Shown: one piece after another, positions 21,281 through 36,200 of the stretch
How positions within the stretch are numbered: position 1 is the stretch's first letter
Layout: every line of letters begins with the position of its first letter
Origin: a phage
Strand: one strand, 5' to 3'
Length of the DNA stretch: 64,000 nt
Assembly: GCA_018175075.1 (NCBI GenBank)
Contig: GCA_018175075.1_4100.1
Translations under genes and position numbers: made by a program
The notes under the pieces: generated by a model
Databases searched by the model: none
What the model saw: the letters and a program-made list of their open reading frames with translations, nothing else
Told to the model about the DNA's origin: nothing

Positions 21281-21943
21281 ATGATGAAATCAAAATTAGG
21301 TTTGTTTTATAAAAACTATTTTGTTAAACAACGTAAATTTATAAAAAAATATTTCTCTGGCGAGAAGTCTAGTCCTATAATCTTTAAAAGACCAAGTTAT
21401 AATACTTACTTAGCTGGTGCTAAACAGTCTAAGAAATTTATTACTCTTTTACATAAAAACAAAATTAAAGCTTCTTATGTTGAAACGAGAAGAAACTCAT
21501 CAATAACTCCTGGTGATTTTATTGAGTACGGATGTTTCAATATTAAGTACAATGATAATACATACTTTATGGATATTGATTGTAATACATCCAATCTTTT
21601 TAACATTGTAGTAAATCCATTAAAACAATATAATGTTTATGGTGATTCTATTATCAAATTAATCAAAAACAAAGATAGCTTTGATTTTGAAATAAATGTT
21701 TTAGATGATAATTTTGACGAAGTACCAGTAAACCCTGAAATCTGTGATATTTTAAACAGTTTAAAAGGTAGTACCTACACTATATCATCTGATTTAATGT
21801 TTCAGTACTCATTAATCCATAAAGATATTGAAAAGTATATTGAATGCTCCAAAATTTTGAATTATCTTTACGATGAATTTAAAAAGAGTTCTAAAATAAC
21901 CGCATACACTTTGTACAATATTCCTAAAATGGTGAATCTTTGA
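21281..21943 (+). CDS. hypothetical Lys/Asn-rich protein
   Basis: 220 aa, AAGGAG RBS; 3' end overlaps convergent minus gene. Confidence 0.55.
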   Translation: MMKSKLGLFYKNYFVKQRKFIKKYFSGEKSSPIIFKRPSYNTYLAGAKQSKKFITLLHKNKIKASYVETRRNSSITPGDFIEYGCFNIKYNDNTYFMDIDCNTSNLFNIVVNPLKQYNVYGDSIIKLIKNKDSFDFEINVLDDNFDEVPVNPEICDILNSLKGSTYTISSDLMFQYSLIHKDIEKYIECSKILNYLYDEFKKSSKITAYTLYNIPKMVNL

Positions 21944-23076
21944 CAAATACAGTACTGGCAACTCCACCGTCTGTAACATATTGTCCAGTACTGTAAATTT
22001 GTATACCATCGGTTAAGTAAGTTCTGTATAAAGTTGCTGTAACATATACGTTATTCATATTCATCTCTATTGGTAGTACACATTTGGTATAGGCTGAGAC
22101 ATCTGTTTGTGTACCTATACCTAATTGACCTGCGTTATCGCCTGTGTTATAACCAGTTGCGTAAACACCTAATGAAGTTATAATATGATTAGAAAAATAT
22201 GAATAACCCACACTGCTTCTTATTATATCACCTGGTGCTTGTGTTGTTTGTCTTAACGAAATATATGTTTGTGATGTAGAACCATTTGCTAACTGACCAA
22301 AGTATTGTCCACCACCATGATATGCAAATAATTTATTACTACTATTATTACTTGCTATAGCAAAAGCGAAGTAACTTGAGTTTGTTGTATAATCTTTCAC
22401 CGTATAGGTATTAGTTATTTGAGAACATAACGTGTACTTTGAATATAACGTCATGTCGGTTGTACCTACGCCTGATATTGCACCAGTATAATACAATCTC
22501 CCATCGGTTCCAATAAATCCTTGCATAAGAAAATTTGCCAGTATTTTGGATGGTGTTACTCCAGTAGGTACTGTTCCTTGTACAAATGATGAAAGTGAAT
22601 CGGTACTTCTACCATTTCCCAGTTGTCCATAACTACCATAACCCGTATTCCATATCGTGTTGTCTGTACATAATACGCTTAATGCACCTGCACTAACTGC
22701 AATTTGTTTTATTGTTTTTCCAAGTGCTGTTATCCTATCAAACACTATCTTTGCAGAAGCCCACGTTGTTGACTTATCAGTTGATAAACCGAATGATGCA
22801 CCATTTCCAGCATACCACATCGTATTATCTTTCTTTTTAATTAATGTTGACTCATACCCGAACCCATAGATCTTCTACGTTTGTATTGCACAAAACCCAT
22901 TTGGTTTGTGTTATAATATTACCTATACCCATTTGCCCAAACTCTTGAGAGCCTCTACTGTACAACGTACCATCTGACATAAGGGCAAAAACTGTTGTAT
23001 CAGATGAAGCTATTTTTGTAACAGAAGGTTGTATGTTCTTTTTTGATGATGTGATAATTCTTCCAAAGGGTAGCAT
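21924..23076 (-). pseudogene. RCC1-like beta-propeller paralog G1, disrupted by a +1 frameshift
   Basis: N-terminal ORF 22852-23088 (MLPFGRI..) and C-terminal ORF 21924-22820 join if one C is removed from the CCC run at 22863-22865. Confidence 0.55.
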
Positions 23077-23088
23077 TGTATCCTCCAA

Positions 23089-23147
23089 ATGTAAATCGTT
23101 ATTATATTTAGGACAAAAAAATGCCAGTACAAAATACTGGCTTTATT
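23089..23147 (-). promoter_or_regulatory. array cassette: terminator hairpin, -10 TATAAT, SD
   Basis: minus strand GCCAGTA..TACTGGC + T-run, TATAAT, GGAGGA. Confidence 0.5.
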
Positions 23148-33656: not shown

Positions 33657-34859
33657 CTATTGTTGCCATAACTGCGTTGGCATTAATGTTAGTGTAGTAA
33701 TACTATAAGTGCCATCAGGCAATCTACCACCATTACCATTCCAGCCACCACATGCATATAATTTATAATCTTTAGTAATTATTATGGTTCTGCTCCAATC
33801 TTTAGATGCCATAAGAACATTGTCATAACCACCACTTATTGCACTAAGATTAAAAATAGCCCAAGTCTTAACTAATGTATTAGTTCCATTACCTTCTTGA
33901 CCATATGAGTTAGGACCACTACTTCTAACATATGGTGCGTATTGTGCCATAGGTGAACCAATTGATGCATTTCCCATATTACTTGGACAAATAAAATTAC
34001 TGTACTTACTTACATCAACCGTGACCGATGTATTCCTAATTGGTGTTAGCTGATTTACTGATGTAGTCGTACCATTACCAGCTTGTCCAGTATTGTTAGA
34101 CCCACTATAATATACAGGCCCACCAGTAGTAAACCACCAAGTAACATTGTATGTAGTACTAATATGTTCTACATTACTAATCACGAATTTGTTCAAATAT
34201 ACAACAGAACTACCACCACATCCACTTTCACCAAAGTTATCCTTACCACAAAACCATGCATCTTTATTTGATTTAATATAGTGCGTTCCTTGTAATGAAC
34301 ATGCCATATCTATAACTTCACCCATATTAGTCATAACTGTTAGTGTAGGGATTGAATTTTGATTACCCGACCCACATTCACCATTAGTATTTTTTCCACA
34401 CGCAATTACTCTACCATCTGTTAATAATATTCTAGTACTTTCACCTATATATACACTCTTGATCATATTAGCCATTACGCCAATTTTATTAAATGAAGCA
34501 GTAACATCAGTCCATGTTCTCAAATAACCACTAACAGGTGTTGCATCTCCATAATCAGAAAATGCACCCACCGACCCAGTGTAGTATATTTTATTATCCA
34601 AATCAACCATCAATGAACCATGAACACCCAGCCAATAGGCTGCACAGTTACGTGCAAGTACAGTAAATGACGGAACTGCTGCTGAATTCCCAAGACCAAA
34701 TTGAGACATGTTATTACTACCATAACCATATAAAGTATTAGTTGGGCTATGTAGATACATACAGTTTGTATAATGTTGTTGTAAAACATCTGAGAACTCT
34801 ATAGGTTCTGGCCCTGGTGCAATATTACCGTACTTAACCATTCTAGCAAAAGGTAACAT
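33657..34859 (-). CDS. RCC1-like beta-propeller repeat protein G11
   Basis: 400 aa, MLPFARMVKYGNIAPGPEP. Confidence 0.75.
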   Translation of the reverse strand: MLPFARMVKYGNIAPGPEPIEFSDVLQQHYTNCMYLHSPTNTLYGYGSNNMSQFGLGNSAAVPSFTVLARNCAAYWLGVHGSLMVDLDNKIYYTGSVGAFSDYGDATPVSGYLRTWTDVTASFNKIGVMANMIKSVYIGESTRILLTDGRVIACGKNTNGECGSGNQNSIPTLTVMTNMGEVIDMACSLQGTHYIKSNKDAWFCGKDNFGESGCGGSSVVYLNKFVISNVEHISTTYNVTWWFTTGGPVYYSGSNNTGQAGNGTTTSVNQLTPIRNTSVTVDVSKYSNFICPSNMGNASIGSPMAQYAPYVRSSGPNSYGQEGNGTNTLVKTWAIFNLSAISGGYDNVLMASKDWSRTIIITKDYKLYACGGWNGNGGRLPDGTYSITTLTLMPTQLWQQ

Positions 34860-34931
34860 ATTTCCCTCCTTTATTCATTATATTATATTTAATCAAAAAT
34901 AAAAGCCAGTACTTGAGTACTGGCATATCAA
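34860..34931 (-). promoter_or_regulatory. array cassette: terminator hairpin, -10, SD
   Basis: hairpin 34905-34924. Confidence 0.5.
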
Positions 34932-36098
34932 TTACGAAAAACGTGGATCATCAAGAACAAACACGGTACTACTTGGACCACCTTGTGTGGTGACAGCACT
35001 AGTACTGTAAAGAAAGTTACCATCTGTCATATAAGTTCTACGATTCGTACAAATAACTCTTACTTTATTCATATCGATATCAGGATTAGGTAATGGACAT
35101 GAAGTATACACTGATACATCAGTACTTGTTCCTATTCCCAGCGTACCTTCATTTGTGGTTGAACCGCTATTCAACCCACTAGCATATATACCACTGCTTG
35201 TAATAACAAAAGTGGCGTAGAATGGAGAACCTTCACCTATATTTAATTTAGTTCCAGGTGGTTGTCTTGCCGCAGCAACCGCACCATATGCTTTCCCACC
35301 AGATGTGGCAAGATTACCAAGAGCACCATACTGTTGTTGTCCACCATTATACACTGTGTTAGTGCCATCACTGTTAGTGTGGATACCAATAGAATTATAG
35401 TTACTGTTGCTATATACTAAAGCGGCATTAGAAGTAACTGTATTTCGTGTATATACTTTATATTGTTGGGTAAAATTACCACTAGTGGACGTACCCTGTA
35501 CAGTTCCAGTGTAGTATATATATCCGTCTGTACCAATGAATGAGTGCATAACACTACCTGCAAAAATTTTTTCTGGAGTAACACCTGACGGTATTGTTGA
35601 TTGTACAAATCTACCCACTACATTTGTTGTTGTATTATTTCCCAATTGACCGGAGTCACCATAACCACTTGACCATATGGTATTGTTCTCAAGAAGAACA
35701 CTAATTGATAATCTTGATAAAGCTATTTCTTTAACATCACTTTCTAATGTATCAAAAAATGAAGTACAATTTGTCCAAGTGTTCACTACGCTAGAACTAA
35801 CACCAATTTGTTTATTATCACCAGAACTATAATAATTCCCATCATATGTTTGTATAAGTATAACAGAACCACCAACCCATACTTTATCAACTGAACCAAA
35901 CGTTCTTGTCCATGTGGTAACTATATCCCCGCTATTATTACCCAATCCAAAGCAACCACTACTATCTACGCCTCGTACATATAAATCTCCTGAAGTCATC
36001 AGAACTGCACAGAATGATTGTGCACCTTTAACATCTTTAATTGGCTCTGGTTCAGGTGCAACATTTCCATAATCAAACATTCTAACAAAAGGTAACAT
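34932..36098 (-). CDS. RCC1-like beta-propeller repeat protein G12 (first gene of array)
   Basis: MLPFVRMFDYGNVAPEPEP; motif GQLGNN. Confidence 0.75.
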   Translation of the reverse strand: MLPFVRMFDYGNVAPEPEPIKDVKGAQSFCAVLMTSGDLYVRGVDSSGCFGLGNNSGDIVTTWTRTFGSVDKVWVGGSVILIQTYDGNYYSSGDNKQIGVSSSVVNTWTNCTSFFDTLESDVKEIALSRLSISVLLENNTIWSSGYGDSGQLGNNTTTNVVGRFVQSTIPSGVTPEKIFAGSVMHSFIGTDGYIYYTGTVQGTSTSGNFTQQYKVYTRNTVTSNAALVYSNSNYNSIGIHTNSDGTNTVYNGGQQQYGALGNLATSGGKAYGAVAAARQPPGTKLNIGEGSPFYATFVITSSGIYASGLNSGSTTNEGTLGIGTSTDVSVYTSCPLPNPDIDMNKVRVICTNRRTYMTDGNFLYSTSAVTTQGGPSSTVFVLDDPRFS

Positions 36099-36200
36099 AT
36101 TTCCTCCTTTATTCATTATATCATATTTACCCCATAAACAAAACCCTTGACAACCTTCCAGTACTGGTGTACTATAGAAGGAATATAAGGAGAACTACAC
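36099..36200. promoter_or_regulatory. divergent promoter region
   Basis: minus side TATAAT + AAAGGAGG for G12; plus side TTGACA 36147-36152 /17/ TACTAT 36170-36175 ahead of family S. Confidence 0.45.

Follow-up and report, generated by a model that had tools for sequence, protein, structure and literature searches.

The genes considered here form an array on the minus strand of a phage contig (GCA_018175075.1_4100.1 of GenBank assembly GCA_018175075.1), within a stretch of 64,000 nucleotides that is referred to throughout as the window, and they are joined by a short N-terminal peptide, the tag, behind which the encoded proteins diverge. Twelve successive genes, G12 to G1, run from position 36098 down to 21924, as an earlier note on this DNA had claimed and as the listing of open reading frames (ORFs) together with a six-frame motif search bears out. 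The nearest kin of the window are the Asteriusvirus-type jumbo coliphages (the 121Q/PBECO4/phAPEC6/G17 group): in a megablast comparison of positions 21000-37000 all 37 matching phage records are jumbo coliphages or Salmonella phages of this group, with a patchy identity of 88-98% and a query coverage of at most 39% by any one record. The annotations under these matches read 'regulator of chromosome condensation', 'putative DNA condensation protein' or 'hypothetical protein', and genes of the array account for 4-5% of the roughly 350-kb genome.

The array and its genes

Two classes of tag are distinguished in what follows, class A being M-[LI]-P-F-x-[RK]-h-x-x-Y-[GA]-N and class B MLPFPIIS-like. 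The genes are listed below with their predicted folds; the A of each start codon is the higher coordinate of its line, that of G5a (27972) serving for G5 and that of G1a (23076) for G1.

34932..36098, minus strand: G12, class-A tag MLPFVRMFDYGN then RCC1-like propeller, 388 residues (PF25390, E=3.7e-16)
33657..34859, minus strand: G11, tag and RCC1-like propeller, 400 residues (PF25390, 1.9e-22; PF00415, 5.5e-9)
32539..33648, minus strand: G10, tag and RCC1-like propeller, 369 residues
31300..32469, minus strand: G9, tag and RCC1-like propeller, 389 residues
30038..31228, minus strand: G8, tag and RCC1-like propeller, 396 residues
29227..29964, minus strand: G7, tag MLPFGRMVKYGN on a glycine-rich, non-propeller domain, 245 residues (phrog_4474)
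27981..29156, minus strand: G6, tag and RCC1-like propeller, 391 residues (PF25390, 1.6e-31)
27163..27972, minus strand: G5a, tag and truncated RCC1-like propeller, 269 residues, ended by a frameshift
26793..27195, minus strand: G5b, continuation of the G5 propeller, out of frame with G5a, about 135 codons
25673..26782, minus strand: G4, tag and RCC1-like propeller, 369 residues (modelled with AlphaFold)
24425..25594, minus strand: G3, tag and RCC1-like propeller, 389 residues
23148..24353, minus strand: G2, tag MLPFPRMIKYAN and RCC1-like propeller, 401 residues
22852..23076, minus strand: G1a, N-terminal fragment with variant, class-B-like tag MLPFGRIITSSKKN, stop after 74 codons
21924..22820, minus strand: G1b, continuation of the RCC1-like propeller of G1, out of frame with G1a, 298 residues

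The tag is confined to the starts of these genes. A six-frame search of the window for LPFxR..[YF][GA]N returned 11 matches, every one at the start of an array gene and none elsewhere, where essentially zero would be expected by chance. The earlier note had ascribed a common N-terminal motif to all twelve genes; this stands for the eleven that open MLPFxR(M/L)xxY(G/A)N but not for G1, which opens MLPFGRIITSS and is without the full motif. In the alignment of these eleven, M1, L2, P3, F4, R6, Y10 and N12 are invariant and M7 and G11 are each kept in ten, whereas past residue 13 conservation collapses and the bodies are 22-43% identical pairwise. Alternating sub-families, also proposed in that note, are weakly visible in the body identities of G6 with G3 (39%) and of G5 with G2 (35%), but G4 with G1 reaches 30% and a clean block duplication does not emerge: equating G6-G5-G4 with G3-G2-G1 yields a reciprocal best match in only two of the three pairs, and this candidate was rejected. 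G12, G9 and G1 make up a further group at 38-43% identity.

The RCC1-like seven-bladed propeller, the fold first proposed for the whole set, is confirmed for eleven of the genes on the combined evidence of Pfam, PHROG and a structural model. PF25390 is matched by eleven of the twelve (E 2.6e-9 to 1.6e-31), at scores under the model's 150-bit curated cut-off, and phrog_4219 ('regulator of chromosome condensation') by eleven (E 1e-63 to 1e-103), while PF00415 and/or PF13540 score above their cut-offs in several members. The AlphaFold model of G4, built on 25 homologs and with a mean predicted local distance difference test (pLDDT) score of 91.3, is a propeller whose top PDB matches in Foldseek are UVR8, RCC1, the HERC2 RLD and RPGR, at template-modelling (TM) scores of 0.64-0.80 (up to 0.80 to UVR8/RCC1), so that structure prediction upholds the fold for this member. 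The exception is the glycine-rich G7, which matches phrog_4474 at 2.5e-69 and has no Pfam match even at E<=5; a profile search with its family against PDB sequences gave no match, and PF21722 (Gly_rich_2) is carried by many of its homologs and by two tag-bearing relatives. Its AlphaFold model has a pLDDT of 94, and the best solved neighbours, the cyanophage Pam3 fibre and a Bxb1 tail-tip chain, are weak (TM 0.24-0.30), the likeness to the Pam3 fibre (TM 0.30) being a hint only. Residues 1-19, which include the tag, are of low confidence in both models (pLDDT about 51-77, and 52-69 in G4), and the domain begins near residue 20. RCC1-like propellers are also found in BFVD among proteins of other phages, namely the Pseudomonas phage Littlefix 'tail fiber protein', PVP-SE1 gp40 and a protein of Pseudomonas phage PollyC that also has a T7 tail-fibre N-terminal domain; the G4-type propeller compares with these tail-fibre propellers at a Foldseek probability of 1.00 and a query-normalised TM of 0.67-0.69.

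The array proteins (25-45 kDa, isoelectric points 4.9-9.3) also stand apart in composition. Charged residues make up 10-13% of them, against 23 +/- 7% in 51 other ORFs of the window, and serine, threonine, asparagine and glycine together 39-49%, against 23 +/- 4%; this is a composition that we take to resemble that of distal fibre or adhesin domains.

The content of the array is mosaic between near-identical phages. The genes that flank it are 99-100% identical to those of 121Q, and within it G1, G4, G5 and G7 are 97-99.6% identical to their 121Q counterparts, G6, G8 and G10 83-88%, and G2, G3, G9, G11 and G12 are without an ortholog there (41% at most). Compared with phAPEC6, G3 is 98% identical, G9 79% and G11 74%, so that G1, G3, G4, G5 and G7 each stand at 97-99.6% to a gene of one phage or the other. 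The frameshift lesions of G1 and G5 recur in 121Q as split genes (234/235 and 237/238), and phAPEC6 has the G5 lesion (gp007) and a 52-codon G1-type head; being common to both phages, the lesions are inherited and not sequencing errors.

These properties bear on the database label, according to which these would be 'DNA condensation' factors of RCC1 type, at work in ordering the 350-kb genome or in forming an inner body. The RCC1-repeat homology is real, and the proteins are present in virions of phAPEC6, a phage with an inner body; the name, however, rests on the eukaryotic homolog only, the propeller being a generic binding fold whose closest structural neighbour is UVR8. The very low charge density and near-neutral isoelectric points argue against DNA condensation, predicting from composition that the proteins would be poor DNA binders. 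Even near-identical phages differ freely in the paralogs that they have gained or lost, as would not be expected of an essential packaging component; two members are frameshifted; and Kelch, LamG and glycine-rich proteins occur at this locus behind the same tag. The label is accordingly considered very improbable as a statement of function.

Eight genes are preceded by a near-identical unit in which a hairpin and T-run are followed by TTAAATATAGTATAATGAATAAAGGAGG and then the ATG. The 28-mer TTAAATATAGTATAATGAATAAAGGAGG occurs in seven copies within three mismatches, all inside the array, where none would be expected, and terminator-like sites number 17 against an expected 5.8 +/- 2.2.

24359..24386, minus strand: cassette TTAAATATAGTATAATGAATAAAGGAGG, promoter-like box and ribosome-binding site, directly upstream of the ATG
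25599-25626, 29161-29188, 29970-29997, 31234-31261, 34865-34892 and 36103-36130, minus strand: further copies of TTAAATATAGTATAATGAATAAAGGAGG
about 32475-32502, minus strand: G9 copy of TTAAATATAGTATAATGAATAAAGGAGG, read directly off the sequence
34905..34924, minus strand: intrinsic-terminator-like hairpin GCCAGTAC(n3-5)GTACTGGC followed by a T-run
32511-32535, 31273-31295, 30008-30034, 29199-29221, 25640-25658, 24399-24417 and 23123-23141, minus strand: further copies of the hairpin

Most genes appear to be transcription units of their own, each made up of terminator hairpin, promoter-like box, ribosome-binding site and tag codons, and the repeated unit offers homology for the swapping of cassettes between phages. 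G10, G5 and G4 lack the upstream unit and each abuts the preceding gene; G10, whose start meets the stop of G11 and which has no promoter cassette ahead of it, is probably translationally coupled. The array holds no excess of sigma-70-type promoters (73 found, 74.7 expected) and the promoter-like box was not found in positions 1-50 kb of 121Q, where many structural genes lie, so that the cassette could not be placed in any known early or late promoter class.

The tag in other phages and on other folds

The same peptide opens comparable sets of genes well beyond the coliphages. In Salmonella phage Munch 17 successive genes all start (M/V)IPFx(R/K)hxxY(G/A)N, 14 of them RCC1-like, one glycine-rich and two other short genes (one LamG-like), and in Xanthomonas phage XbC2 the bodies behind 11 starts of the form MLPFPQLVQYGN or MLPFPIIS are RCC1, RCC1 with Kelch, Kelch and LamG-like, some being without a family match. 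Serratia phage BF has nine tag genes, mostly with the variant MLPFPIISNT, Erwinia phage Hallingskeid has ten, and Pectobacterium phage CBB has nine at 344-355 kb as well as CBB_144, which lies between nrdD and nrdG. Among 103 tag-bearing ORFs of at least 150 residues gathered from about 11 phages, Pfam assigned 67 as RCC1-like, eight as Kelch, seven as Laminin_G_3/ConA-like and a few as glycine-rich, the rest remaining without assignment. The tag is therefore kept at the amino-acid level over at least five phage lineages and at least four folds, and the view of the earlier note, that variable binding domains sit on one short N-terminal handle, extends to Kelch, LamG/ConA-like and glycine-rich relatives.

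A scan of IMG/VR with a degenerate DNA pattern for the strict tag, which took in the whole 121Q contig, gave 11 matches in that 348.5-kb genome, all within the array, and eight in CBB, all at known tag genes; on these sequence counts the tag appears nearly exclusive to array genes. Class-B tags of the form MLPFPIIS(N/S/H)T share arrays with the YGN class (seven of the nine in BF, two of the 11 in XbC2), and the start of G1 is similar. They may address a second docking site. The corresponding class-B scan of IMG/VR (ATGYTNCCNTTYCCNATHATHTCN) yielded 18 MFPFPIIS matches that proved spurious, lying in short non-coding frames, and it missed Serratia phage BF because BF encodes Ser as AGY.

Codon usage within the tag gives an indication of the level at which it is conserved. 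Among the 17 genes of Munch and the nine of CBB the codons for P3, F4, R6, Y10, G11 and N12 vary synonymously while the residues stay fixed, which points to selection on the peptide and not on the DNA. In the window the codons for R6, Y10 and G11 likewise vary synonymously; codons 2-4 and 12 are fixed at their synonymous sites too, which fits some further constraint on the nucleotides themselves, or else gene conversion of the repeated unit. It is conceivable that the conserved start, instead of directing the protein to the virion, serves expression or assembly, either as a DNA element of translation initiation or recombination or as a recognition peptide for a phage chaperone or protease in the folding of the beta-rich bodies. 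In the window, one repeated DNA unit with invariant synonymous sites does run from the promoter-like box through the ribosome-binding site to the twelfth coding nucleotide; such repeats would favour cassette exchange, and 121Q encodes ClpS-like and chaperonin-like proteins. Across genera, however, the residues are kept although both the DNA ahead of the gene and the synonymous sites diverge, G10, G5 and G4 keep the tag without the upstream cassette, and the tag tracks virion proteins detected by mass spectrometry (MS) over four folds. A DNA-level element alone explains neither the tagged genes without a cassette nor the tracking of virion proteins, and a role in expression or assembly is on the whole judged improbable.

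Some of the bodies also occur behind other starts. The glycine-rich body and a body of about 220 residues ('DIDF') are found in the Vequintavirinae, with genomes of about 150 kb, where some are annotated as virion structural proteins. Alignment of these homologs to the array bodies begins past the tag, and their own starts follow M-x-E-M-L-[LM]: MFEMML in PVP-SE1 gp19 (positions 5998-6840 of the retrieved stretch), MEEMLL in 4MG_167 (2965-3615) and MNEMLM in CR3 gp255, a 'virion structural protein' (1456-2106). Metagenomic homologs of the glycine-rich body begin MLELL or MIELL. The same bodies with other heads are what lineage-specific adaptor peptides on exchangeable modules would lead one to expect, and the M-x-E-M-L-[LM] and MLELL/MIELL starts may represent a parallel tag system in another phage lineage.

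Orphan remnants of the tag lie inside some arrays, as in CBB, where MLPFPQLVVL is followed by a stop (position 17564 of the retrieved stretch), and in 121Q, where gene 240 (retrieved-stretch position 21910) is an orphan tag-bearing fragment of 68 codons. Such remnants are scars of cassette turnover. In the genome records of Munch, XbC2, BF and CBB the tag array occupies the far right end, in CBB just before a 22-kb terminal repeat, and the phAPEC6 array spans the record origin; given this position at the record ends, the locus seems to be linked to the physical end of the genome.

Virion association and a proposed docking role

Incorporation into virions, for which the earlier note had suggested proteomics, is already on record for relatives of these proteins. 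'Eleven similar RCC1-like proteins' were reported in phAPEC6, and eight of the eleven (gp003, 005, 006, 007, 009, 010, 549 and 551) are in its virion proteome (PMC7247149); gp007 is a truncated ortholog of G5, yet was detected. The structural proteins of CBB detected by MS include CBB_144, 536, 537, 548, 549, 551, 552 and 553 (PMC5259590), all of which start MLPF...Y[GA]N, and the RCC1-like GAP32 gp001 is likewise an MS-detected structural protein (PMC5259590). The authors of the phAPEC6 study speculate that the RCC1-like proteins order the DNA or form the inner body, and describe an inner body, a T4-like prohead protease and unexplained hairy fibres on tail and capsid (PMC7247149). In CBB the whisker proteins could not be assigned by its authors, whose paralog table links just 536 with 537 and 549 with 553 (PMC5259590). 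A 2026 Asteriusvirus paper names the genes 'chromosome condensation regulators' and finds them to vary between close relatives (PMC13070987).

The earlier note was thus mistaken in holding the family to be undescribed, since GenBank records name it 'regulator of chromosome condensation' or 'putative DNA condensation protein' and the phAPEC6 and CBB papers discuss the paralog set. No description of the shared tag, of its non-RCC1 folds or of a docking role was found in the searchable literature, and the array genes go unmentioned in the Sharanji paper and in a jumbo-phage comparative-genomics paper. An apparent link between RCC1 and a hypervariable region of prasinoviruses was a false lead, 'RCC' there denoting strain numbers of the Roscoff Culture Collection. 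The array and its RCC1 homology were already known, then, whereas the occurrence of one tag on several folds, its division into two classes and the proposal that it docks appear to be new.

Two interpretations had been offered for the shared start, a set of receptor-binding proteins and a set of capsid-targeted proteins, and the evidence gathered, which is indirect, leans towards external display. Under the second, the tag would be a T4-style capsid-targeting leader with which the proteins enter the prohead core, to be ejected with the DNA and to neutralise host defences or other host factors. The internal proteins of T4 are small and basic, and lose their leader to the prohead protease, which cuts after a Glu. 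A hyperplastic locus, virion-associated products, the inner body and T4-like prohead protease of phAPEC6, and the occurrence of RCC1 and Kelch propellers as protein-binding folds in eukaryotes and their viruses would all fit such a role. Yet neither within the tag nor behind it is a Glu or another cleavage motif conserved: Munch, XbC2 and BF show no consistent site, most of their members having no Glu close to the tag, and four of the 11 window genes (G10, G9, G8 and G6) have no Glu in residues 13-25. Moreover, proteins that are near-neutral, 10-13% charged and 25-45 kDa in size are unlike the T4 internal proteins. The LamG/ConA-like, glycine-rich and tail-fibre RCC1 domains point instead to external binding of carbohydrates or surfaces, and MS abundance is low, whereas proteins of a core or inner body are abundant. 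Capsid targeting is considered unlikely.

The interpretation favoured here, to which we assign a probability of roughly 55%, takes the tag for a peptide that docks on the virion and by which interchangeable adhesin modules of low charge are put on display. The array would be a hyperplastic locus of virion-associated binding modules, in which each protein consists of the 12-residue N-terminal tag, a linker of some six to eight residues that is often proline-rich, and a self-contained, beta-rich binding domain. The tag would bind a common acceptor site on the particle, possibly on the hair-like fibres or their anchors on tail and capsid, and the modules would be shown on the virion surface as accessory adhesins. 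What we infer is that the proteins dock, that they lie on the outside and that they act as adhesins; the presence of RCC1-like propellers in the tail-fibre proteins of other phages supports external display, and a precedent for docking is the 'conserved peptide' of receptor-binding protein 2 (RBP2) of KP32, which is needed and sufficient for the incorporation of foreign domains into virions (PMC13352976).

Several points weigh against this interpretation. Detection by MS denotes association with purified particles and does not tell outside from inside, the phAPEC6 list also holds likely contaminants (SSB, RecA and thymidylate synthase), and peptide counts are low, at 1-5 per phAPEC6 protein. 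The acceptor protein has not been identified, no search for one having been made, and known docking-peptide systems use trimeric fibre or spike proteins and not monomeric propellers. A globular propeller of 40 kDa is no 'hair' itself, and the tag correlates only loosely with hairy fibres: hairs are present on CBB, phAPEC6, 121Q and fEgEco12, but GAP32 has tag proteins and no reported hairs. Finally, the first 12 coding nucleotides are invariant in the window, synonymous sites included.

A bolder version of the docking proposal can be put forward tentatively, as a possibility well short of the proposal itself. The tag might be a universal address label for a single docking site on Rak2-like jumbo phages, for which 10-17 unrelated modules (RCC1, Kelch, LamG and glycine-rich) compete, so that each virion would carry a random mixture of adhesins, a bet-hedging 'wardrobe' on its hair-like fibres, with parallel tags serving elsewhere (M-x-E-M-L-L in the Vequintavirinae).

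What follows for annotation is that the 'DNA condensation' label on Asteriusvirus records is probably wrong, the genes appearing to encode tagged, interchangeable, virion-borne binding modules. The docking proposal is a candidate answer to two questions, the role of the RCC1 array and what decorates, or binds through, the hair-like fibres. If it is true, the tag would provide a very short handle with which to display foreign proteins or load arbitrary cargo on jumbo-phage particles, and also a marker by which accessory adhesins could be recognised in related genomes, whatever their fold.

Neighbouring regions and comparison with known systems

Several features of the window lie next to the array or beyond it. 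Adjoining it on the plus strand, at 19819-21238, are four tandem genes for multi-pass membrane proteins of about 105-140 residues, with basic, KRKRG-like C-termini, which are apparent paralogs; comparable runs of 'putative membrane protein' genes adjoin the tag array of CBB. On the other side, 36200-42500 seems poor in ORFs at a threshold of 70 residues, and consists of tandem units of about 190/380 bp that each open with GGTACTAATATGCATAAAGAATACTACAC (a ribosome-binding site followed by M-H/N-K-E-Y/F-Y). This is a second paralog array, with ORFs of about 60 residues, and the counterpart of the tiny genes 249-265 in 121Q. At 41643-41770 an 8-bp periodic repeat, present about 16 times (GGATGGCT / AGACGGCT / AAACGGCT), could be iteron-like, or a packaging or origin-type site. 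Further along on the plus strand, 42989-43291 and 45062-45331 are two small paralogous ORFs with HKNKTHWNVSLWINN...TPDGFKYSTTAIRAAMVGM in common.

The nearest precedent for the proposed docking is provided by the Klebsiella phages KP32, K11 and KP34, in which a peptide of the secondary receptor-binding protein docks on the T4gp10-like branching domain of RBP1. There as here, a short conserved N-terminal peptide heads bodies that are otherwise unrelated, hypervariable and modularly exchanged. The two systems differ in that the tag is 12 residues long and not about 29, that each genome carries 10-17 paralogs and not one, and that the bodies are of monomer-type propeller, lectin and glycine-rich kinds where those of KP32 are trimeric beta-helix depolymerases; nor does the array tag have sequence similarity to the KP32 peptide. 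The internal proteins IPI, IPII and IPIII of T4 and their T-even variants are alike in placing a short conserved leader on diverse, fast-evolving proteins packaged in the virion (PMC3012670), but differ from the array proteins, which have no conserved cleavage site (hydrophobic-x-Glu), low charge and beta-rich domains of 25-45 kDa.

The annotated paralogs of Rak2-like phages (121Q genes 234-248, phAPEC6 gp001-010/549-551 and GAP32 gp001; phrog_4219) belong to the same family at the same locus, and the literature gives them an unknown or DNA-condensing function. As for RCC1 proper, a Ran guanine-nucleotide exchange factor and chromatin binder, the composition of the array proteins (10-13% charged, isoelectric points 4.9-9.3) speaks against a corresponding DNA-binding role. 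The tail-fibre propellers of PollyC, Littlefix and PVP-SE1 gp40 are of identical fold, but are fused to a long fibre or a T7-type adaptor, where those of the array stand alone behind a tag of 12 residues. The docking mechanism proposed here would be a variant of known adaptor-peptide systems.

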